Assembly (NCBI RefSeq): GCF_003334815.1
Contig: NZ_QOWO01000063.1
Strand: one strand, 5' to 3'
Length of the DNA: 9,120 bases
Origin: Escherichia coli
GTDB lineage: Bacteria > Pseudomonadota > Gammaproteobacteria > Enterobacterales > Enterobacteriaceae
A program made the position numbers and the translations under genes. The notes beneath the pieces were generated by a model. That model was not told the DNA's origin, did no database searches, and worked only from the letters and a program-made list of their open reading frames with translations. Positions 1 through 9,120 of the stretch are shown here, in pieces; the first letter of the stretch is position 1, and each line of letters begins with the position of its first letter.

Positions 1-94
1 AAAAAATCGGCTCAAACATGAAGAAATGAAATGACTGAGTCAGCCGAGAAGAATTTCCCCGCTTATTCGCACCTTCCTTAAACCCGATACGCTT

Positions 95-1390
95 TTGATC
101 AATAAAGTCCATGCAGAAAGCCTAAGGCTTGATTGGCTGGCTAAGACCACGCCTCCAGTCGCTAGTGTTCATCCTACCGTGCCTCTTGCCGCTCCTGCCC
201 CTACTATCGATAACGAGTATGTTAATCGAAAGTATTACACTAAGAATCTGTCGTGGTTATGCTCTGAATATCTAAAGCATCGGCGCAAGGGCAAGGTATC
301 GGAGTCGGCTATAAGTGATATCCGTAACTATTTCAGCTTTATGATCGAAGCGATGGGTGACATTCAGTTGGAAGATTTTGATCGCGATTTCCTCCGGGCT
401 TATGAGAGCAAACTGCGCACGATCCCAGCAAACCGTAATTTAGTCAAAGCTAAATATGGAGTGAAAACGCTGGATCAGTTAATCGCCAAAGCGGCAGAAT
501 GCGGCGATAAATTGATGACTGAGGAATCCGTTAGGAAGTATATCAACGGCATTTATGGTGCAATGAAGTGGGCTGTTGCTGACGGTAAGCTACTGAAATC
601 GCCATGCGAAAACTTTTTTCCATCCGATGATAAAGATGAGCGAGATCAGGATCACACTGACATATTTGAACCGCATGAAATTAAAGCGATTTTTTCGTTA
701 CCGTGGTTTGAGGCTGGAACTGTTGAACGCAATGCGCAAGGGCGATTCCATCAATATTGCCCGTTTAACTATTGGGCAATATTGATGGGCTTGATGACGG
801 GGGCGCGAGTTAATGAAATCGCTCAGTTACTGCTGAGTGATGTTCTGGCAGACGACGGCGTCTATTATTTGAACCTTGAAAGCGATAATGAAAGCGGAAA
901 GAAACTCAAAAATGCTAATGCTCGCCGCAAGATTCCGCTCCATTCAAAGCTGATTAGTCTCGGTTTCATCGACTACGTGAACGCCTTAAAAGATGCAGGG
1001 TATACCCGTCTCTTCCCGGAGCTTAAACCACATAAAACAAAAGGCTATGGTAGGCCAGTTTCCGCATGGTTCAATGAATCGTTGCTTGCGGGGCGGTTGA
1101 AACTCGAGAGGAACAGAAGCAAATCTTTCCATTCTTTTCGCCACTCAGTTTCGACTTTGCTCAAGGAGAAGGGCGTTAGCTCAGAATTACGAGCGCAGCT
1201 ACTTGGGCATGTGCGCGGCGAAACTGAAACGGAAGTGCGATATAGCAAAGACCTCAAACCAATTCATATGATTGAAGTCGTGGAGAAAATTGATTTTTCG
1301 TTACCTGATATAGCGGAATTCAACATTCCTGACGGGCTGGATGCTGTCAGAGATGCGTTGCGAAGAAAGCGTGGCAAACAAACAGGTTGA
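95..1390 (+). CDS. Tyrosine recombinase / phage-type integrase
   Basis: Long ORF whose C-terminal half carries the tyrosine-recombinase catalytic signature: LMTGARVNEIAQ (box I Arg), then HSFRHSVSTLL ... LLGHVRGETETEVRYSKD (H-x-x-R, His, catalytic Tyr). The first in-frame start is TTG at 95 (in-frame stop at 32..34) with no clear SD; GTG at 179 and ATG at 341 are alternatives, so the 5' end is uncertain. Confidence 0.8.
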   Translation: MINKVHAESLRLDWLAKTTPPVASVHPTVPLAAPAPTIDNEYVNRKYYTKNLSWLCSEYLKHRRKGKVSESAISDIRNYFSFMIEAMGDIQLEDFDRDFLRAYESKLRTIPANRNLVKAKYGVKTLDQLIAKAAECGDKLMTEESVRKYINGIYGAMKWAVADGKLLKSPCENFFPSDDKDERDQDHTDIFEPHEIKAIFSLPWFEAGTVERNAQGRFHQYCPFNYWAILMGLMTGARVNEIAQLLLSDVLADDGVYYLNLESDNESGKKLKNANARRKIPLHSKLISLGFIDYVNALKDAGYTRLFPELKPHKTKGYGRPVSAWFNESLLAGRLKLERNRSKSFHSFRHSVSTLLKEKGVSSELRAQLLGHVRGETETEVRYSKDLKPIHMIEVVEKIDFSLPDIAEFNIPDGLDAVRDALRRKRGKQTG

Positions 1391-1423
1391 ATCAGTTACT
1401 ATTCAGTTGAGTGATGCTTGAAT

Positions 1424-1455
1424 GCGCTGGGACGCTTCCTGGCGCGTTTTTTATT
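1424..1455 (+). terminator. Rho-independent terminator downstream of the integrase
   Basis: GCGCTGGGA / TCCTGGCGC stem (9 bp including two G-U pairs, 4-nt loop CGCT) followed immediately by TTTTTTATT at 1447..1455; lies between the convergent integrase and the 1523..1855 gene. Confidence 0.45.
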
Positions 1456-1522
1456 AAGGGTGGTGGATTTCATAGTGCTGAATTTGGAGACGCTCAAAAC
1501 ACGTTTGGTGAAACTTGATGAC

Positions 1523-1855
1523 CTACGATTGCACCCGCAGCCCTTCTACGCTTTCTGATGGTAGATTTATCACTGTTTTAATGCTGGCCTCTATGTTGCC
1601 AATGATGTCTTCGCGCGGGCCGCTGCGCCAGTCATCGCTTGCGTAAAAAGCGTCGAGAACCGTAGTCATGCTTTTAGGGCTGACAAAGGCGCGAATCAGG
1701 TAATAGCAGTCCGGGTCATGCAGAGAGTTACCAAACGAAACAACATCGATCCCGTGGCGTTGGTGTAGGGGAACACTGATTTCCTGCATAATGGCGTGAA
1801 AAGCGGCACCGCTGCCTTTGCGTAAGGTGTATTGCAGTATCTCGACGGTTCTCAA
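1523..1855 (-). CDS. Small dimeric alpha/beta-barrel protein, NIPSNAP/ABM-like (hypothetical)
   Basis: 110-codon ORF; the N-terminus MRTVEILQYTLRKGSGAAFH resembles the beta1 motif of NIPSNAP/stress-responsive alpha-beta barrel proteins. TTG start at 1855 with a GGAG 8 nt upstream on the minus strand; an out-of-frame ATG (1860..1858) is followed by a stop after two codons. Confidence 0.5.
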   Translation of the reverse strand: MRTVEILQYTLRKGSGAAFHAIMQEISVPLHQRHGIDVVSFGNSLHDPDCYYLIRAFVSPKSMTTVLDAFYASDDWRSGPREDIIGNIEASIKTVINLPSESVEGLRVQS

Positions 1856-2828
1856 AGCATTATCTCCGCGTCGCCTCTGGACGGCTCCCTTGTTGATAGC
1901 AATAAAGTAAACCGGACTGGGCCATGAAGCTACTGCTAATCAGACAGTCATCCGTAAGCAAAAGCTGCGATATGCGGTTCAAACGCGCTGTAAGGCTCTC
2001 TGGCGAGTGTTTTAAAGAAGGTAGTCGAAATCATGGTGCAGAATTCGCGGCGCTCTCATAGAGTGACTGGCGAAGCCAGTTGAAACAAGCGTAGCGGAGT
2101 TCGAGCAATCAATGAGAAATCTGGGCGAGCTTTAAGCTTTACCGCGCTTCTTAACTTTTGAGTCTGTTTGGCTCTATAAGGATAAGCCTGCCGCCGTGGA
2201 AATTTTCGGACGCTATGCCTGAGAGGGGCGCTTCCAAACCTAGGGCATCCACTTTTTCGCTCCCAACTTATCTGGCTGCATTTACACCGCGAACACGTTG
2301 AACGTTAGCAGCTTCTGGTTCGTATTTGGTTGTTACGCAGGAGAGGTAAAAACGGCAGGTTTACTTTTGACGGCAACGCCATAAGACACCAAACAGCAGA
2401 GAAGTGTAATTGTTAAAAATGTTAAAACATAACTTGTTCTTTAAGATGTAAACCCTTCCTCGGGGGGGAAGCCGGACATATCAACCATAAGGCCATCTGA
2501 GAAGATAGCCTGTAGGTTGCTCGGTTCCCCTTGCCAGATGAAGATCAAGTCTTCCTCGTGGTGTGACGACCTTTCTTGAAAGATGCATTATGCGCAAAAG
2601 AAGCTACTCAAGAATCCGCCGATAGCTACTTTCACCCTCTGCTTGGCTGCATCAAACGCTTGCGCGCCCTACCTACCACAATCAACGTTACGCAGAGTTC
2701 CCATCCTGACGTCTTCCGCTAAACAGCGGTGATCTCCACCTACCCGGACCGGTTTACCGCATGAGGTAGGTGTCAGGAGAGAAGCTAGCACACCATCATT
2801 TTAAAGAAAAGTCATATATATCATATGG

Positions 2829-2851
2829 CTGCGTTCATATTCTGAACGCAG
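2829..2851. repeat. Perfect 9-bp inverted repeat (CTGCGTTCA-N5-TGAACGCAG) just downstream of the DUF1643-like gene
   Basis: Read directly: 2829..2837 is the reverse complement of 2843..2851. No adjacent T-tract on either strand, so it is more likely a protein-binding site or RNA hairpin than a classical terminator. Confidence 0.5.
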
Positions 2852-2860
2852 TTATCGATG

Positions 2861-3327
2861 TTAACCTAAAGGTATGAGAACACTGTCGTTTTTCATATAC
2901 AAAGGGTGCTTCGGCTCACCTGTAGCGTTTAAGACGAAGCACATTGTGCTCTCTGGCAATAGCTGTCGGACGGTCGTTGAGCGTTTGAGGTGTCTTCCTT
3001 CATTTCCCCATGCGGCGACAACCAGTCCGGCACCGCTAACAAGACGTATCAAGTGGCTATCGTTATCTTTGCCAATGGGATCAGACGCTTTCATCATTTC
3101 ATGTCGCTGGGTGTGAACGAATGCGAACAGGTTGGCCATGTATACGCCACCGTAGCCCCAGCTTTTGGCAAACGATATGCAGCGGCTCAAGGTGCGATCA
3201 TCCTTCTCAGCATCGGCGTATGAAGGGTTTAGCCCTATGAAAAGGGCATATGGTTTTGATTCGTCCCAGACTCGTGATAACGAGTAGCGATATTGACCGC
3301 ACGGTGAAAAATCGCGTCTTTAATCAT
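2861..3327 (-). pseudogene. DUF1643-family gene interrupted by a frameshift in a homopolymer run (or N-terminally truncated product from TTG 3190)
   Basis: The 2861..3190 ORF translation contains SRCISFAKSWGYGGVYMANLFAF ... VAAWG ... GEPKHPLY, matching the DUF1643 pattern as I remember it. The same frame continues upstream (KPYALFIGLNPSYADAEKDDRTL, also family-typical) to a stop at 3320..3322 with no start codon. An ATG with an AAGGA SD 8 nt upstream sits at 3327..3325 in another frame and terminates after 30 codons. The two frames meet at the A5 run at 3307..3311; adding one base there gives a continuous ORF of about 155 codons. Confidence 0.5.
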
Positions 3328-3398
3328 TTCGGTTGTCCTTATGAAGTGATGGTTTCAGCCTAACATGTCTTTATCCGTTTTAAGCGCCAACAAACGAC

Positions 3399-3499
3399 CG
3401 TTTTCTGGCACCTCCCAATCGCACGCTTTCACACTGTTGGAAAAATAGCCTTGGCTTTTCTGGCAGGCCATCCTAATGTTGGCCTCGTTTTCTGGCAGG
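3399..3499 (+). promoter_or_regulatory. Three direct repeats of TTTTCTGGCA upstream of the serine recombinase (candidate res-like or operator region)
   Basis: Core TTTTCTGGCA at 3401..3410, 3456..3465 and 3488..3497 (flanks cgTTTTCTGGCAcc, gcTTTTCTGGCAgg, cgTTTTCTGGCAgg). A small inverted repeat AGGCCA-N9-TGGCCT lies between copies 2 and 3. The last copy ends about 22 bp before the recombinase ATG. Confidence 0.4.
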
Positions 3500-3519
3500 G
3501 GTCAGATGGGGAGATAACA

Positions 3520-4080
3520 ATGGCAACTTTTGGCTACGGACGTGTTTCGACATCGCAGCAGGATACTGAGAACCAACGGCTGGAGCTTGGGCAGGCTGGG
3601 TGGCAAATTGATTACTGGTTTGCCGATGTTGTTAGCGGGAAGGTTCCGGCAATGCAACGTAAAGCATTTTCTGAAATGCTCAATAAAATCCGCGATGGTG
3701 AAACGTTGGTGGTAGCGAAGCTTGATCGTCTGGGGCGTGATGCGATTGACGTCTTGCAAACGGTAAGGGCGCTGGCTGACCGTAATATCAAGGTTCTTGT
3801 CCACCAGCTTGGTAACACAGATCTCACTTCTGCCGCTGGGAAGTTGCTATTATCTATGCTCGCCGCGGTTGCGGAGATGGAGCGTGATCTGCTGATTGAG
3901 CGCACTCAGGCGGGACTATCACGAGCAAAAGCCGAAGGTAAGAAATTGGGCAGACCTCCTAAAATCGCGTCAGAAGCCCGTAGAGAGATTTTAGAGAAAA
4001 AGAATAGCGGTTTGAGTATCAGTGCGTTAGCGCGTCAATATGGCGTTTCAAGAGCGACTGTAGCAGCTATTACCGATTGA
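3520..4080 (+). CDS. Serine recombinase (resolvase/invertase family)
   Basis: Translation from ATG 3520 (GGGGAGA SD about 6 nt upstream) begins MATFGYGRVSTSQQD with the catalytic Ser motif, then LVVAKLDRLGRD and a C-terminal HTH (GLSISALARQYGVSRATV) after a GRPPK linker. This is the classic small serine recombinase architecture. The ORF-track start at 3451 is an upstream in-frame extension without an RBS. Confidence 0.9.
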   Translation: MATFGYGRVSTSQQDTENQRLELGQAGWQIDYWFADVVSGKVPAMQRKAFSEMLNKIRDGETLVVAKLDRLGRDAIDVLQTVRALADRNIKVLVHQLGNTDLTSAAGKLLLSMLAAVAEMERDLLIERTQAGLSRAKAEGKKLGRPPKIASEARREILEKKNSGLSISALARQYGVSRATVAAITD

Positions 4081-4093
4081 ATATGGAGAGTTT

Positions 4094-4939
4094 ATGGCTT
4101 ACACAGCAACTGTTATCCCTGTAATGATTGCTTCTCCTGGTGATGTCGCTGAAGAGAGACAAGTCATTCGTGAAATGATCCATGAGTGGAATGATATAAA
4201 TTCAGCTCGTTCAAAAGTAATGTTGACACCAATTGGATGGGAAACTCATACATCACCCGAATTAGGAGTTAGGCCTCAGGAGTTGATTAATCAAAGATTA
4301 TTAGTAGATTGTGATTTATTAATCGGTGTGTTTTGGACTCGTCTAGGCTCACCGACTGGGAACGAGGCCAGCGGAACAGTCGAAGAAATCCACCGTCATT
4401 TGAATGCGGGAAAACCGGCAATGATTTACTTTTCCTCAAAGCCTGTTGCCCCTGAAAGCCTTGATAGAGAACAATATGAGTCTCTTAAATTGTTCAAAAC
4501 TGAGTGCATGCAAAAGGGATTGATAGAGTCTTTTAATGACTTATCTGATTTCAAAGAAAAAGTCCGTAGGCAACTTTCGATAATTATTTCTAGTAGCCCT
4601 TATTTGTCTTCTCTTATATCTACCATTAACAATTCTCCTGATGCGAATACAAGTCAATCTTTGCCAGAAAGTAATTTGTCCGCCGATGCACTCAGTTTGC
4701 TGAAATTAGCATGTGTCGATGATAGCGGAACAATTTATGTGATAAGGCATTTAGGTGGCACGGATATTCAAGCGGGAAATCAATCCTTTGGTGGAAGTTC
4801 GGCTAGAGAGGTAGCCCGTTGGGAGGGCGCACTTAACGAACTGTTATCCTTTGATTTTGTGATTGAAAGAGGGGCAAAAGGACAAATGTATTATGTTACT
4901 CATAAAGGCTGGACATTTCTTGAATCTTTAAATGAATAA
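4094..4939 (+). CDS. Hypothetical two-domain cargo protein; N-terminal domain resembles a DUF4062/TIR-like Rossmann-type domain, C-terminal domain unknown
   Basis: ATG 4094 with GGAGAG SD; starts 13 bp after the recombinase stop. The N-terminal segment VMIASPGDVAEERQVI ... LVDCDLLIGVFWTRLGSPTG ... GTVEEIHRHLNAGKPAMIYF fits the strand-helix pattern and conserved acidic/ER and CD motifs I associate with DUF4062-type domains (from memory, unverified). The gene is visibly more AT-rich than the recombinase. Confidence 0.55.
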   Translation: MAYTATVIPVMIASPGDVAEERQVIREMIHEWNDINSARSKVMLTPIGWETHTSPELGVRPQELINQRLLVDCDLLIGVFWTRLGSPTGNEASGTVEEIHRHLNAGKPAMIYFSSKPVAPESLDREQYESLKLFKTECMQKGLIESFNDLSDFKEKVRRQLSIIISSSPYLSSLISTINNSPDANTSQSLPESNLSADALSLLKLACVDDSGTIYVIRHLGGTDIQAGNQSFGGSSAREVARWEGALNELLSFDFVIERGAKGQMYYVTHKGWTFLESLNE

Positions 4940-4999
4940 TTAAATGCGAGGTCATTACATAAGTTTATTTTTGATGTTAGGGTGAATTCCCTCACATTT

Positions 5000-5494
5000 T
5001 TATTCGAAAGAGGCCGCAATGACTTCTCCTGTTTTTGCGTTGAAAACACAAAAGTATTGAAGCGGAGCTAGCATCCCCAAGCTGTTAACTACCTTAGCTT
5101 GTTGCCCAAATGCCTGAATAATCTTCGCGTTCTCATCGTGCCAGAGATAAGTATTAAATACAGGCGCTTCGCTTTCTTGCCACACATGGCGAAACTTCGC
5201 TTTCTCATCCATTACCTTTTTGCACTCCCTGACCGGGTTATGGTGCGTTTTCGCATAGCATTCCGGGTTGTCATCTGCACATACGATATCTTTTCGTGCT
5301 GTCTGATGCTCAGCACCTACAGCAGAAAAGGCGCATACGCCCAGCACCAATGAGAGAGTGCCCAGAGCACCCCATACAGTTGCGCGTAGCGTGCTGATGT
5401 GCTGCTTTGATACAGCATGGGCAACTACACTATAACTGGCCCAGCTAATCGCGGCTCCCGCTGCAATCGGTAATAAAAAGTCTGCTCCCGTCAT
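5000..5494 (-). CDS. Small membrane protein, two predicted TM helices plus a Cys-containing C-terminal domain (hypothetical)
   Basis: ATG at 5494 with GAGGG SD 5 nt upstream on the minus strand. Hydrophobic segments ADFLLPIAAGAAISWASYSVVAHAV and ATVWGALGTLSLVLGVCAFSAVGA are followed by a soluble domain with several Cys. The ORF-track start at 5551 is an extension without an RBS. Confidence 0.6.
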   Translation of the reverse strand: MTGADFLLPIAAGAAISWASYSVVAHAVSKQHISTLRATVWGALGTLSLVLGVCAFSAVGAEHQTARKDIVCADDNPECYAKTHHNPVRECKKVMDEKAKFRHVWQESEAPVFNTYLWHDENAKIIQAFGQQAKVVNSLGMLAPLQYFCVFNAKTGEVIAASFE

Positions 5495-5554
5495 GATTCC
5501 CTCACTTTCCAAACCACATCGCGCCTGATAGCGAACGCTGGTGACGCCCAACCG

Positions 5555-5568
5555 ATGATGATCATCAT
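5555..5568. promoter_or_regulatory. Perfect 14-bp palindrome ATGATGATCATCAT in the divergent intergenic region (candidate operator)
   Basis: Read directly; self-complementary across the 5561/5562 centre. It sits about 60 bp upstream of the membrane-protein start and about 165 bp upstream of the XRE regulator start. Confidence 0.4.
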
Positions 5569-5734
5569 ACTTGTTGGGTTTTAAATGTCACCATTGGTGT
5601 TTGTTTTGAATCAAAAAGGATTGTCATGATACAGCCGATGAATGCTAGTGACTAAGCTCGCTGAAGTGAGATTGGATTCAAAATATCTCATATGGAGCGT
5701 GGCCTTACAGTGGTCAAAATTGCACATTCAGTGC

Positions 5735-6199
5735 ATGAAAAAATCCCTGAGAATACAGTTTGGCGAGCGGGTAAAAGAACTGCGCATTGCCACCGGATTG
5801 AGCCAAGAGGCCTTTGCCGATCGGTGCGGGTTTGCACGTAGTTATATGAGCAGAATTGAACGTGGTGGCTCTAATGCGTCTCTGGATGCGATTGAGGTGC
5901 TGGCTAACGCTCTGAGCGTTGAGCCGTGGCAGTTGTTAGCGCCTGGCCCATCTGAAGATAACGACTCGGAACTGTTGGTTCCATACGCAGCCGATGGTTC
6001 CTGTTTTCACCCCGGTTTGGCGAGCACCCGTGATGGTTCGTTTGGCGTAGGTGATAAAGCGGCTCAGAAGCGTTTTGGCACGTTTGCTGAAGCTCTTGAG
6101 TATCTTCGTAGCATGGAGACAGCAAAATGGCGTAGGCCTAATCCTAGCGGCAACTGGGGTATCGTATCAGCGGTTCGGTGGGACAAACTGAGAAAGTAG
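5735..6199 (+). CDS. XRE-family (Cro/cI-type) helix-turn-helix transcriptional regulator with an uncharacterised C-terminal domain
   Basis: MKKSLRIQFGERVKELRIATGLSQEAFADRCGFARSYMSRIERGGSNASLDAIEVLANALSVEPWQLL is a textbook XRE HTH. The start was chosen at ATG 5735 because the HTH then sits at the N-terminus; no good SD at either 5735 or the ORF-track start 5642, so the start is uncertain. Confidence 0.75.
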   Translation: MKKSLRIQFGERVKELRIATGLSQEAFADRCGFARSYMSRIERGGSNASLDAIEVLANALSVEPWQLLAPGPSEDNDSELLVPYAADGSCFHPGLASTRDGSFGVGDKAAQKRFGTFAEALEYLRSMETAKWRRPNPSGNWGIVSAVRWDKLRK

Positions 6200-6678
6200 C
6201 TCAAGTGTAAGTTTATGAATTTTTATGCTGTATGGATGAACAGTATTCATTAGATGCTGATAGTCTTATGTTTCATCAGCCCTTTGTTTCTATAAGAGTG
6301 AATAAAACAGCAAAATGCGGGTGCGTTACGGTGGCGTTTCGCTTTGGCTCTTAATGGCTTAATTCATATAAATAACATTGAGTTAAATAGTTATTCTGAA
6401 CAAGGTCTGCCGGGGTCTAACTGGTTTCAAAATCCGAACGCAGTGGCGTTTATTCAACGTCCACATAGCTGACAAATGTTCTTTCCTCCCGACTCGGCAG
6501 ACCTCCAGAAACATTAAAAGGCAGGTATGGCACGTTGATGTTTTATGCCGCCACGAACACTCGGTTTGATTCCGTCCAGCGGATCAAACTTAATATGTAG
6601 CCCCTAGAACAAAAAGGTCCTACGATTGCTCTCTTAACAGCTAACAGGAACGTGATTACAGCAGGTTATAGAGACTTA

Positions 6679-6703
6679 GGTTCGAGTCCGGCCTTCGGTA
6701 CCA
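6679..6703 (+). repeat. tRNA-Leu 3'-end-like sequence (T-loop, acceptor 3' strand and CCA): candidate att direct repeat / island junction
   Basis: GGTTCGAGTCCGGCCTTCGGTACCA matches the 3' end of enterobacterial tRNA-Leu(CAA) (leuX type, recalled as ...CCGGTTCGAGTCCGGCCTTCGGCACCA) with one mismatch. The upstream sequence cannot form the rest of a cloverleaf (the T-stem 5' strand is TTAGG, not GCCGG), so this is a 3' fragment, not a gene. Confidence 0.55.
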
Positions 6704-7236
6704 AGTTACTAAATTCCTTACAATACAGTTAGTTAGACGATTAAATCTGTCTCTTTTGCCTGTAAGAAATGCTCTGTTATGTCCCTTGAAAAAGCCGCTG
6801 TGGTTGATAGTGGTAATTGGGATGTTAACTCATAGCGGCGTGTCGTTCCAAGCGTCAAACACGTACTGACTCAACTTGAAAGCTATGACGTAGCCACCGT
6901 CTCTAAACAATCCCAAAACTTTTAGTGCAGCGCATTTTAGCCCGATGCCCCCATTCTGTCGCCGTCGCGAGACGCCGCAGGGGATAAACAGGTTTATGGT
7001 GGTCACGGTACTTGCAGACCATATGCAAGCTCTGCCAGCGGTTCGGCCTCGCTCCCCTTGGGTACATGGTCATCCTGATAAGCCTCACTAACTGACATAA
7101 CCCTGATGAAGTCGCAAGAGGCTCCGCTTGTTGTCTTACCACCAACGGGGCTTTATGGATTCTATTGCTTAATATATGATTGTATCAAACTTAGACTGCA
7201 TAATTTAAACGAACATAACAATCAGGCAGGGGAAGA

Positions 7237-8061
7237 ATGATAAAGCCATTTTCTGTGAGGTATGGTCATGTTGACGTTAGAGAGCATGTCCAGCTGAATG
7301 ATCTTAATTCTGATACACGCATGGCATTGTGGAATTGCTTATATCTTTTCCTTTGGACTAACAATCGTCAAACTGCTACAGCAACAAAATGTGCGCAGTC
7401 TGTGTGGATATATTATCTAAATCAACCTGCGGATAATATTCCTCGTTATGAAAGTGGATACAAAAGTGATAAGACGTTGCTGACTGCTATCCGAGATTAT
7501 ATATATGGGGAAGCATGGTATTTGGTATATGATTTAATTGAGTTCATCATTGAGAGAACTAATTCATATATTAATCTATCGAAGCATCTCAATTCCATCT
7601 TTAAAAAGCATGGCGTTGGTTATACCATAATAAATGGTTGTATTACTCCTATTTCAAATGATAACGAAATTGAAAGTGTTCAGAACGCAGTTGATAATGG
7701 CACTGATTCATCGCGTAGCCATTTCGAAAGGGCGTTACAACTAATGACGGATAGAGAGCAGCCAGACTACAGAAACTCGATTAAAGAGTCTATCTCTGCA
7801 ATTGAATCTTTATGCAGGAAAATCACGGGCAATGATAAAGGAACCTTGGGGGCTTGTCTTAAAGCTATAGAGGAAAAAGGATATATACACTCTGCAATGA
7901 AAGGCGCTTTTAGTCAGCTCTATGGTTATACAAGTGATCAGGGTGGAATACGTCATGCGCTAACAGAAGAAGATGTAAATCCTACCTTAGCTGAAGCTAA
8001 ATTTATGTTAGTCACTTGCAGTGCGTTCAGTAATTATCTGTTGTCAAAAATAAGTGATTAA
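7237..8061 (+). CDS. AbiJ-like abortive-infection protein (AbiJ N-terminal-type domain plus C-terminal HEPN-like domain), putative
   Basis: ATG 7237 with GGGGAAG SD. The N-terminus FSVRYGHVDVREHVQLNDL ... RMALWNCLY fits the FS-x-R-x-G ... LWN pattern I associate with AbiJ N-terminal domains. The C-terminal part has PDYRNSIKESISAIESL ... GYTSDQGGIRHALTEED ... AKFMLVTCSAF, typical of the linked HEPN-type domain. Family assignment is from memory, not a search. The gene is strongly AT-rich. Confidence 0.5.
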   Translation: MIKPFSVRYGHVDVREHVQLNDLNSDTRMALWNCLYLFLWTNNRQTATATKCAQSVWIYYLNQPADNIPRYESGYKSDKTLLTAIRDYIYGEAWYLVYDLIEFIIERTNSYINLSKHLNSIFKKHGVGYTIINGCITPISNDNEIESVQNAVDNGTDSSRSHFERALQLMTDREQPDYRNSIKESISAIESLCRKITGNDKGTLGACLKAIEEKGYIHSAMKGAFSQLYGYTSDQGGIRHALTEEDVNPTLAEAKFMLVTCSAFSNYLLSKISD

Positions 8062-8079
8062 TTACAGGTTTATAGTTAC

Positions 8080-8114
8080 GAGTGGGTTAGTTACCCACTC
8101 CCTTTAAAATTATT
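8080..8114. terminator. Candidate bidirectional terminator between convergent genes
   Basis: Perfect 8-bp stem GAGTGGGT / ACCCACTC (8080..8087 and 8093..8100, 5-nt loop) followed by CCTTTAAAATTATT; lies between the stop of 7237..8061 and the stop of the 8110..8682 minus-strand gene. Confidence 0.4.
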
Positions 8115-8682
8115 CACCAGACTCTAATCTTTTTTCTCTTTTCTCATCTCTCCTTTTTATTGCCAAATCGTGTTGCTCTTGCAGATACGTGCGTTCTTCG
8201 TTTCTATCGCTTGAAGTATATACGTCTGCTTTTACTTTTTTAGCTCCTTGTGCAATAGGTTTCCAATCCTCTCTTATACCTTTAATTTGTTCTGCAATTT
8301 GCGTCAATGGGCTTCTCGCTCCTAGATAACTTATTCCTTCAAATGTCGCCATGTCATACACATATTCATTTGTTTCTCTATCGTTTGATTTAGGTTTGCT
8401 TGCCCAGCTTATATTAATATTATAAATTTGATCTTTGATTTGTTCATACTTACAGAGATTGCTGGTAAGTGATTGCCCATTTTTTAACACGCTTACCTTA
8501 CTAAACGGAATCTCACTTTTTTCTCTATGCTCCGCATTTACTAGTGGAGGATCAAACACAACCTCAACATTATAGGCAGGTGCGTTCCCTGTATTAGCAA
8601 TGTTAATATCAAAGTAAAAAGCGGCCCAAGGGTTTGGCTCAAGTGTTACAACTATATGGGGTTGAGCTGATGCGTCAACCAT
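8110..8682 (-). CDS. Hypothetical protein (AT-rich cargo gene, no recognisable family)
   Basis: Start assigned to ATG 8682..8680 (MVDASAQPHIVVTLEP...). The ORF-track extension to 8736 would run into the IS terminal repeat and is therefore unlikely to be native. The C-terminal tail is Lys/Arg/Glu-rich. Confidence 0.5.
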   Translation of the reverse strand: MVDASAQPHIVVTLEPNPWAAFYFDINIANTGNAPAYNVEVVFDPPLVNAEHREKSEIPFSKVSVLKNGQSLTSNLCKYEQIKDQIYNINISWASKPKSNDRETNEYVYDMATFEGISYLGARSPLTQIAEQIKGIREDWKPIAQGAKKVKADVYTSSDRNEERTYLQEQHDLAIKRRDEKREKRLESGE

Positions 8683-8710
8683 TCTTTTTGTCTCGTCTGC
8701 TCTGAAGTGG

Positions 8711-9045
8711 TGAAGTGGTTTACTGAATTTGGCCACCTGAACAGAGGTGATATGCTCACCTCAGAACAACACAGGTGCTCCAATGAAAAAAAGAAATTTT
8801 AGCGCAGAGTTTAAACGCGAATCCGCTCAACTGGTTGTTGACCAGACATACACGGTGGCAGATGCCGCCAAAGCTATGGATGTTGGCCTTTCCACAATGA
8901 CAAGATGGGTCAAACAACTGCGTGATGAGCGTCAGGGCAAAACACCAAAAGCCTCTCCGATAACACCAGAACAAATCGAAATACGTAAGCTGAGGAAAAA
9001 GCTACAACGCATTGAAATGGAGAATGAAATATTAAAAAAGGCTAC
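8711..9045 (+). mobile_element. IS3-family insertion sequence (IS911-like), left end with terminal inverted repeat and orfA; truncated/interrupted at 9045
   Basis: The terminus TGAAGTGGTTTACTGAATTTGGCCACC begins with the TGAAGTGG...GGCCACC pattern I recall for IS911 ends, and the downstream sequence encodes an IS911-type OrfA. An extra TGAAGTGG copy sits immediately upstream at 8703..8710. Confidence 0.75.
8783..9045 (+). CDS. IS3-family (IS911-like) transposase OrfA (HTH/leucine-zipper N-terminal protein), 3' end disrupted by insertion
   Basis: Translation [88 protein letters not shown] is near-identical to IS911 OrfA as I remember it. After codon T (9044..9046) the reading frame continues into unrelated sequence. 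Confidence 0.8.
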
Positions 9046-9120
9046 TGTAGATTCAATCTGTCAATGCAACACCCCTTTCAATTATCTCTTTCGGTGTTTT
9101 GAACTTCAGTGTCTTTCTCG
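9046..9120 (+). mobile_element. Terminus of an IS30-family element inserted into the IS911-like orfA (continues beyond window)
   Basis: The sequence from 9046, TGTAGATTCAATCTGTCAATGCAACA, resembles the IS30 terminal inverted repeat (recalled as TGTAGATTCAATTGGTCAACGCAACA). The junction is exactly where IS911 homology stops. Confidence 0.5.

Follow-up and report, generated by a model that had tools for sequence, protein, structure and literature searches.

The 9,120-nucleotide stretch of Escherichia coli DNA analysed here (the window; contig NZ_QOWO01000063.1 of assembly GCF_003334815.1) carries at 6679–6706, on the plus strand, a sequence that is very likely attR, the distal copy of the attachment core that arose on integration of a 7.3-kb islet at the 3' end of leuX, the tRNA-Leu(CAA) gene. 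Its first 25 nt (6679–6703, GGTTCGAGTCCGGCCTTCGGTACCA) equal the last 25 nt of leuX, as called by ARAGORN in near-identical genomes, at 24 of 25 positions, and cover the 3' half of the T-arm, the 3' strand of the acceptor stem and the terminal ACCA. Identity with the leuX site then runs 3 nt (AGT) beyond the CCA to give a 28-nt core, the direct-repeat partner of attL inside leuX; the window copy agrees with the core of relatives at 27 of 28 positions. The only mismatch, at 6699, is a T where leuX has C; this is the final position of the acceptor stem's 3' strand. Within the window the 25-mer occurs once, even with three mismatches allowed, and none of 200 shuffles matched it; by our own arithmetic, the chance expectation for a 24/25 match in 18 kb on both strands is about 1e-9. 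The left limit of the identity is abrupt, with no similarity to the tRNA body in the alignment of 6594–6678, and the cloverleaf body (D arm and anticodon arm) that would mark a tRNA gene or pseudogene is absent upstream of the T-arm fragment. ARAGORN predicts no tRNA gene in the window and Rfam reports no tRNA match there.

We took advantage of 5,426 complete E. coli genomes, about 285 of which hold a chromosomal segment 99.9% identical to window positions 78–9120. The reference locus, from strain E94 (L001; window position = locus position − 5923), reads ahr, leuX (5228–5312), a 636-aa site-specific integrase (5403–7313), NIPSNAP, a frameshifted DUF1643 gene, a small serine recombinase, a 281-aa protein, a membrane protein, an XRE-family helix-turn-helix (HTH) protein, AbiJ-NTD4, a hypothetical protein, an IS911 fragment, IS30, a second IS911 fragment and fecEDCBA; Nissle 1917 has the same gene order. 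In relatives of the window an intact leuX thus sits 90 bp upstream of the full 636-aa integrase gene. A repeat finder recovered in E94 a perfect 28-nt direct repeat, GGTTCGAGTCCGGCCTTCGGCACCAAGT, with one copy within and just past leuX (5288–5315; leuX ends GGTTCGAGTCCGGCCTTCGGCACCA) and the other at 12602–12629, equivalent to window 6679–6706, a spacing of 7,314 bp. In seven loci the 25-mer is present exactly twice, one copy being in leuX. The preliminary description of this DNA had read the 25 bp as a tRNA-Leu T-arm/acceptor/CCA fragment without the remaining tRNA, and had suggested looking upstream of the integrase for an intact tRNA-Leu gene with the same 25-bp end and aligning the two copies; the near-identical genomes bear it out on each of these points. 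It was also right that an element is delimited here, as the repeat and the empty site described below attest, but the size of about 6.7 kb that it gave has to be revised to 7.3 kb.

The T at 6699 is peculiar to the window: it is found in none of the complete genomes, the full-length matches in 286 genomes all have C, and the best full-length matches to a 91-mer spanning the position reach 98.9%.

The empty site was sought with a synthetic query of 710 bases, in which the ahr–leuX flank through the core is fused to window 6707–7100. Its junction (leuX-AGT-TACTAAATTCC) was matched in one piece, at 100% over 710 bp in the best genomes, and is carried by 219 genomes, including E. coli C, the type strain ATCC 11775, S88 and WG5. 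In E. coli C, leuX is followed by 530 bp and then by the same AbiJ-NTD4 gene. Because the interval is absent exactly at the 28-bp core in these 219 genomes, we regard the 7.3-kb interval as a discrete insertion; because the block containing AbiJ-NTD4 is there joined straight to leuX, that block is separable from the islet. The precise absence of a bounded interval also answers the objection, raised in the preliminary description itself, that the 25-mer might belong to a larger unrelated conserved sequence.

Related elements place the same core in front of different DNA. O157:H7 EDL933 has a relative at leuX (74% coverage, 89% identity; 83% in the integrase, 92% in the backbone and 89% in the right arm), with 26–27-bp repeats 10.2 kb apart followed by a truncated second, P4-like integrase. 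In strain F374 the right neighbours are a DUF4102 fragment, an HNH endonuclease and an AAA protein; in 2017.06.05CC (VN2017) the same cargo, 94% identical, precedes a frameshifted integrase and a Ser/Thr kinase; and strain 100416 holds a further relative with other right neighbours. When five attR regions are aligned, the left side is conserved element DNA, the core is identical and the right side is either of the AbiJ type or of a K-12-like leuX-terminator type, while a metagenome contig supplies a third type of right flank. Use of the same nucleotides before differing right flanks indicates independent insertions, as integrase-mediated site-specific recombination predicts. Outside E. coli, Enterobacter sichuanensis and Yersinia ruckeri each carry, some 90 bp past their tRNA-Leu(CAA) gene, an integrase with about 90% protein identity; attR was not located in these loci, where the DNA examined ends earlier or the site is degenerate. 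A related backbone is also found in sister elements that occupy the tRNA-Gly gene glyU, next to ETT2. One 9.9-kb contig filed under a 'Collinsella sp.' metagenome-assembled genome (JAIJJM010000048.1, locus L007) bears the complete element between leuX and the AbiJ flank; its integrase does not differ from that of E. coli (100% identity), and it is almost certainly an E. coli contig mis-binned into the Collinsella genome.

By analogy with the established mechanism of tRNA-targeting tyrosine integrases, we propose that the attP of the circular islet, a stretch of 25–28 bp, would have been paired with the identical 3' end of leuX (attB) by the islet's own 636-aa tyrosine integrase. Strand exchange inside the identity would rebuild the tRNA gene at attL and leave a tRNA-less copy of the last 25 nt of leuX at the far end, attR. 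On this model the islet would have entered between leuX and DNA already present there, the 2-kb AT-rich block with the AbiJ/PDC-S32 gene, which is the leuX-proximal stub of the fec island, and the outcome would be tandem layers with the newest element beside the tRNA. The attP reconstructed from the two ends reads ATAGAGACTTA-GGTTCGAGTCCGGCCTTCGGCACCAAGT-CTTATCTAAGTCG.

In the window the integrase gene is no longer whole. Positions 1–77 (minus strand) are the terminal 77 bp of an IS5-family insertion sequence (IS; IS5/ISKpn26-like), followed by TTAA at 78–81, and homology to the roughly 285 related genomes begins at 78; the insertion point lies after the first base of integrase codon 200, beside the TTAA. 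The target of IS5 is YTAR. Matches to the 77-mer with 100% identity come from 1,733 E. coli genomes, on chromosomes and plasmids and at up to 42 places per genome, and one match lies about 70 bp past the end of a coding sequence annotated as 'IS5-like element ISKpn26 family transposase'. The IS5/integrase junction itself is in none of the 5,426 complete genomes, nor in 42 fetched loci. What remains of the integrase (78–1390, plus strand; codons 200–636) is cut off by the IS from the first 199 codons, which encode the DUF6538 N-terminal domain, and from the promoter, attL and leuX. Pfam assigns to the full protein DUF6538 (residues 7–64), a SAM-like domain (SAM_5, 259–376) and Phage_integrase (436–582), with no DUF4102 reported, and the protein matches the PHROG 1 integrase (3e-32); the window portion comprises part of the SAM-like domain and the catalytic domain, without the DUF6538 N-terminus. 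Relatives have a tyrosine-recombinase gene at the tRNA-proximal end, of which the window keeps codons 200–636 only. Given that the integrase is split, the window islet is very probably immobile, a fossil or crippled copy inactivated by the IS5-family insertion. Two further statements of the preliminary description need qualifying here. The integrase that it saw at the left edge is indeed an integrase gene, but only its 3' two-thirds; and although the locus is leuX in relatives, leuX is not immediately upstream in the source genome, because of the IS, beyond which it would be expected.

The window differs from E94 at five positions (779, 780, 781, 785 and 6699). The four changes inside the integrase gene turn GGGCACCTTTGCTGG into GGGCAATATTGATGG, where the relatives all differ from the window, and they convert a formerly imperfect inverted repeat with 748–762 into a perfect one of 15 bp (CCATCAATATTGCCC / GGGCAATATTGATGG). 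The 779–785 variant is missing from the complete E. coli genomes, and neither it nor the T at 6699 occurs in the 42 fetched loci. By its pattern, the cluster at 748–788 bears the classic signature of a template-switch (quasipalindrome) mutation, here within an IS-disrupted gene. The hairpin formed at 748–788 gave rise to a spurious mir-230 match in Rfam.

How the islet came to its present distribution admits more than one account. One is that the att site is a fossil and that the element moves passively, through homologous recombination of the leuX region or vertical descent, the record then amounting to one old insertion followed by precise loss across the 28-bp repeat. Several observations speak for such passive spread. 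All of the roughly 285 near-identical copies have the same right flank, at 99.9% identity, and homologous recombination or vertical descent could explain much of their spread; DUF1643 is frameshifted in the window's cargo type; and the exact 43-mer of attP had no match in the metagenome contigs scanned, although a negative from assemblies says little. The shared flanks and the missing attP match also weigh against the main account, as do two further points: no Xis- or AlpA-like excisionase was matched in NCBIfam, PADLOC or PHROGs, the XRE HTH protein and the serine recombinase being the only such proteins present; and IS-mediated rearrangement may have parted the window element from leuX, the sequence left of the IS5 end lying outside the window. 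On the other hand, relatives with the same backbone, the same-cargo VN2017 element (94% identity) among them, precede different right flanks, leuX relatives exist in two other genera, which requires that site-specific insertion took place repeatedly, at least in the recent past, and the integrase open reading frame (ORF) is intact in hundreds of genomes. We consider purely passive spread unlikely. Far less credible still is the suggestion that the 25-mer has nothing to do with integration and is what is left of a tRNA-Leu gene after duplication or decay, or else a sequence that arose by chance or is conserved for another reason. It would suit the bare fact of a partial tRNA sequence with a point mutation, but it founders on the lack of tRNA-body similarity upstream, on the identity that continues 3 nt past the tRNA into the same bases as at attL, on the precise loss of the bounded interval from 219 genomes and on a left flank that is conserved element DNA in all relatives; the 28-bp repeat, the empty site and the conserved left flank refute it.

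The status of the DNA to the right of attR is a separate matter. An integrase-less, leuX-proximal block (6707–8710, plus strand; 2,004 bp; GC content 35–40%), which abuts an intact leuX in the 219 empty-site genomes, begins with 530 bp of non-coding DNA from 6707 and contains an AbiJ-NTD4/PDC-S32 gene (7237–8061, plus strand; PADLOC PDC-S32, 5.6e-104) and a hypothetical gene of 190 aa (8110–8682, minus strand). It is followed by the left end of an IS911 interrupted by IS30 (8711–9045, plus strand; transposase fragment 8783–9040; 98% identical to K-12 L003:11126–11534, IS911B and IS30D) and by the IS30 end itself (9046–9120, minus strand; IS30 terminal inverted repeats at L001:14969–14994 and 16164–16189, with the transposase coding sequence following). 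Homology to K-12 resumes only at 8711, the left end of IS911B. The IS911::IS30 junction is the same as IS911B::IS30D of K-12 KpLE2, so that window-type and K-12-type loci differ only between leuX and the IS911 end; beyond the junction lies the IS-riddled fec island. In S88 the whole leuX–fec region is listed as PAI-S88-leuX, PAI denoting a pathogenicity island (PMC7545054).

We conclude that the AbiJ block represents an older, separately acquired layer that supports tandem accretion and is now a mere stub. In alignment, the leuX downstream sequences of K-12, the element (attL) and E. coli C part 1–3 nt past the CCA, which fits exchange at the att core. There is nevertheless some chance, if a doubtful one, that the block was never a second mobile module and is instead the remnant of an IS911-mediated deletion or replacement in a larger leuX island, or resident hotspot DNA, in which case 'tandem accretion of two mobile modules' would overstate what is one islet beside a decayed, non-mobile remnant. 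The block is only 2,004 bp long and holds no integrase, it stops exactly at the IS911 end where K-12 homology restarts, the same interval in K-12 holds 10.6 kb (intB to yjhE), and no distal leuX repeat bounds the AbiJ/fec island over 20 kb in E. coli C or 49 kb in E94 and in K-12. A random deletion, however, would not be expected to leave the homology of the AbiJ, K-12 and element types breaking 1–3 nt past the CCA, which is the signature of exchange at the att core; moreover, relatives hold islands with P4-like integrases at the same position, and the block is AT-rich with a defence-candidate gene. The preliminary description, which took the Abi-like block as a separate acquisition by tandem accretion, is accordingly upheld as to separability, whereas a self-contained mobile module could not be demonstrated.

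Comparison with described islands indicates that the islet is, on the basis of its gene content, a cargo variant of SpLE5 of O157 Sakai, the left part of OI-172 (Z5878–Z5889 of EDL933), and not SpLE5 itself. The two share the leuX 3'-end site with repeats of 26–28 bp and a homologous backbone in the same order: long integrase, NIPSNAP, a conserved non-coding region, DUF1643, serine recombinase, cargo, XRE HTH and right arm. They are also alike in lying in tandem before an older leuX island and in their presence/absence behaviour. The cargo sets them apart. Window 4077–5674 has no homology to the O157 element, and equivalents of ECs5249–5250 are lacking; between recombinase and HTH, SpLE5 encodes proteins of 438 and 257 aa, unrelated to the DUF4062 and membrane proteins of the window. 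SpLE5 of O157 additionally has IS629/IS1203 and DUF4160, its right neighbour is a P4-like integrase island rather than an integrase-less AbiJ block, and the window, unlike SpLE5, has an IS5-interrupted integrase gene and a frameshift in DUF1643. In Sakai, SpLE5 and then SpLE6 stand in tandem at leuX (PMC8190617). OI-172 is a composite island beside leu-tRNA with two integrases, whose left part was gained after the split from O55:H7 (PMC3681947), and the SpLE5 segment is precisely absent in lineage II O157 (PMC1890555). The junction type is thus an ordinary one already documented in E. coli; the att repeat is textbook and little new, the locus is among the best-known variable ones of E. coli, and with the O157 relative (SpLE5/SpLE6, OI-172) already described as a composite tandem island, the finding is of low novelty.

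KpLE2 of K-12, with intB, and PAI II of the uropathogenic strain 536 likewise use leuX as attB, and KpLE2 shares the IS911::IS30 and fec part with the right side of the window locus. The end of PAI II-536 is marked by a directly repeated copy of the tRNA 3' end. These islands measure 39–102 kb against 7.3 kb for the islet, their cargo differs, and their integrases are P4-type proteins of about 400 aa with an N-terminal DUF4102, whereas that of the islet has 636 aa and an N-terminal DUF6538; where DUF4102 or P4-like fragments occur in relatives, they lie to the right of attR. The leuX locus is also defence-island hotspot #37 of E. coli (PMC12707154). The window fits this description, having a tRNA-anchored integrase on the left and defence or defence-candidate genes (PDC-S32/AbiJ-NTD4 and a PDC-S60-like gene) to the right. 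The hotspot is handled as one locus in that survey, while the internal att core splits it here into at least two separately acquired layers. The practical value of the finding is one of annotation: the 28-bp core divides the leuX hotspot into such layers and would order them, the newest element being next to the tRNA. By-products for the study of defence islands and of the RNA of mobile elements are mini-islands with fixed slots, glyU-retargeted sisters and the conserved non-coding region.

The islet backbone and its cargo can be told apart by comparison among relatives. Downstream of the integrase lies a NIPSNAP-family backbone gene (1523–1855, minus strand), annotated by PGAP in E94, Nissle and O157 and conserved in F374 and O157. 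A DUF1643 gene (2861–3327, minus strand) is a pseudogene in the window's cargo type, marked as 'frameshifted' by PGAP in both E94 and Nissle, whereas the VN2017 element (94% identity) and O157 relatives have an intact copy. The small serine recombinase of resolvase/invertase type (3520–4080, plus strand; NCBIfam Mpi-family invertase, 4e-28; PHROG 125 DNA invertase, 1e-55) also belongs to the backbone and is conserved in all relatives, glyU-type elements included. It is followed by a cargo gene for a 281-aa protein (4094–4939, plus strand), which PGAP labels DUF4062 in several genomes and whose N-terminus resembles the PADLOC candidate PDC-S60 (5.8e-27, residues 8–167); in F374, O157, 88COLEC and MEI7 it is swapped for unrelated genes. 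Next come a predicted membrane protein of 164 aa (5000–5494, minus strand; PGAP 'membrane protein'; PHROG 20749, 1e-102), present in F374 and not in O157, and, by the right end, an XRE-family HTH regulator (5735–6199, plus strand) with HTH matches in NCBIfam, PADLOC and PHROG, conserved in every relative and a candidate regulator of the element.

Comparison with F374 reveals insertions between integrase and NIPSNAP and between DUF1643 and recombinase, and a replacement directly after the recombinase. The element family has fixed cargo slots, one behind the integrase and one on either side of the recombinase. In relatives the PADLOC models found in these slots are an AbiU-like AIPR protein, PDC-M18A/B, PDC-S31 and a NucC-like PD-(D/E)xK protein, with HNH and NUDIX proteins as further contents (loci L005, L010, L011 and L015 compared with 4077–5000). 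An inverted repeat of 21 nt, 81% complementary (4068–4088 / 5455–5475), flanks the DUF4062 gene and most of the membrane-protein gene, its left copy beginning at the 3' end of the serine recombinase gene.

Up to the core, O157, F374 and strain 100416 share the non-coding right arm, or attP arm (6200–6678, plus strand), and beyond it they diverge. The arm contains the motif GTAGCCCCT-N3-ACAAAA at 6597–6614, in a longer form of about 30 bp with ..GG..TACGA at 6597–6626 and L001:5371–5400, so that the reconstructed attP has the GTAGCCCCT motif once per arm, about 80 bp to the left and about 55 bp to the right of the core. In intact elements the left-arm copy, right of the core in attP, directly adjoins the start codon of the integrase, and it is partly kept in the glyU-type element. 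The two copies could be arm-type integrase sites, or the left-arm copy could simply be the 5' untranslated region of the integrase. About 90 bp before the att core, at 6563–6590, is an imperfect conserved hairpin (GGTTTGATTCCG TCCA GCGGATCAAAC), which the repeat finder offered as a 68% 'third copy' of the core, a resemblance that we judged to be chance. On the other side of the integration site, each layer supplies its own sequence just downstream of leuX (L001:5316–5350; L010:2448–2490; window 6707–6760): the K-12 type has a strong terminator hairpin, the F374 and Yersinia elements a clear stem with a T-run and the E94 type a weak AT palindrome. Insertion may in this way alter how leuX transcripts terminate and how their 3' ends are processed (compare PMC2811032).

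The conserved non-coding region is the sole item here that might repay further work. Unannotated, ORF-free, structured and near-invariant, it is about 330–370 nt long and lies at about 2440–2860 on the minus strand (core about 2462–2775), with equivalents at L001:8363–8783, L005:13033–13454 and L015:6001–6415 and in 27 metagenome loci (L016–L042). Its 2440–2810 part is single-copy in 595 E. coli genomes and annotated in none of them, is 99–100% identical between elements whose backbones differ by 8–20%, and is the only homologous DNA between NIPSNAP and DUF1643 that leuX-type and glyU-type elements have in common. Among fifteen distinct variants, metagenome copies included, the 5' part varies and the body, about 330 nt, is nearly invariant. 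In the 5' hairpin 100% of cells are paired and two pairs are compensatory; it has a covariation score of 0.145 against 0.069 +/- 0.013 in shuffles, a value reached by none of 500, and its U.G pairs are valid on the minus strand only. The consensus fold is −103 kcal/mol on the minus strand versus −83 on the plus strand; single-sequence fold z-scores are −3.2 (minus) and −4.1 (plus). Rfam at E<=10 returned snoRNA noise only, 72,556 plasmids, consulted in case the region is a plasmid origin of transfer (oriT), gave no match, nor did viral contigs, and a simple scan found neither a sigma-70 promoter nor an intrinsic terminator in the region. We also considered whether the 308-aa or the 112-aa gene that Enterobacter has at the same position could have decayed into the ORF-free 1 kb, for which tblastn returned nothing, and whether Esr41 might be a small RNA encoded by such SpLE elements, but Esr41 resides in OI-43 and is unrelated. 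The region may be a new non-coding RNA (ncRNA) or a DNA site such as oriT. We tentatively raise the possibility, for which the odds are less than even, that leuX-type and glyU-type SpLE5-family islets share an undescribed structured ncRNA of ~330–370 nt, with a 5' leader that varies and a body that hardly does, required in their life cycle, for example in regulation, mobilisation or control of the defence cargo. If that were true, the islets would form a coherent class: small carriers of defence cargo, built around a serine recombinase with cargo slots at fixed places.

Just upstream of the region, at 2830–2850, lies a perfect palindrome, TGCGTTCA-N5-TGAACGCA, which is invariant in all variants. 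A degenerate copy with three mismatches is found at 6422–6442, in the right arm downstream of the HTH gene, and two or more palindrome matches arose in one of 200 shuffles. The palindrome could be an operator for the XRE regulator.

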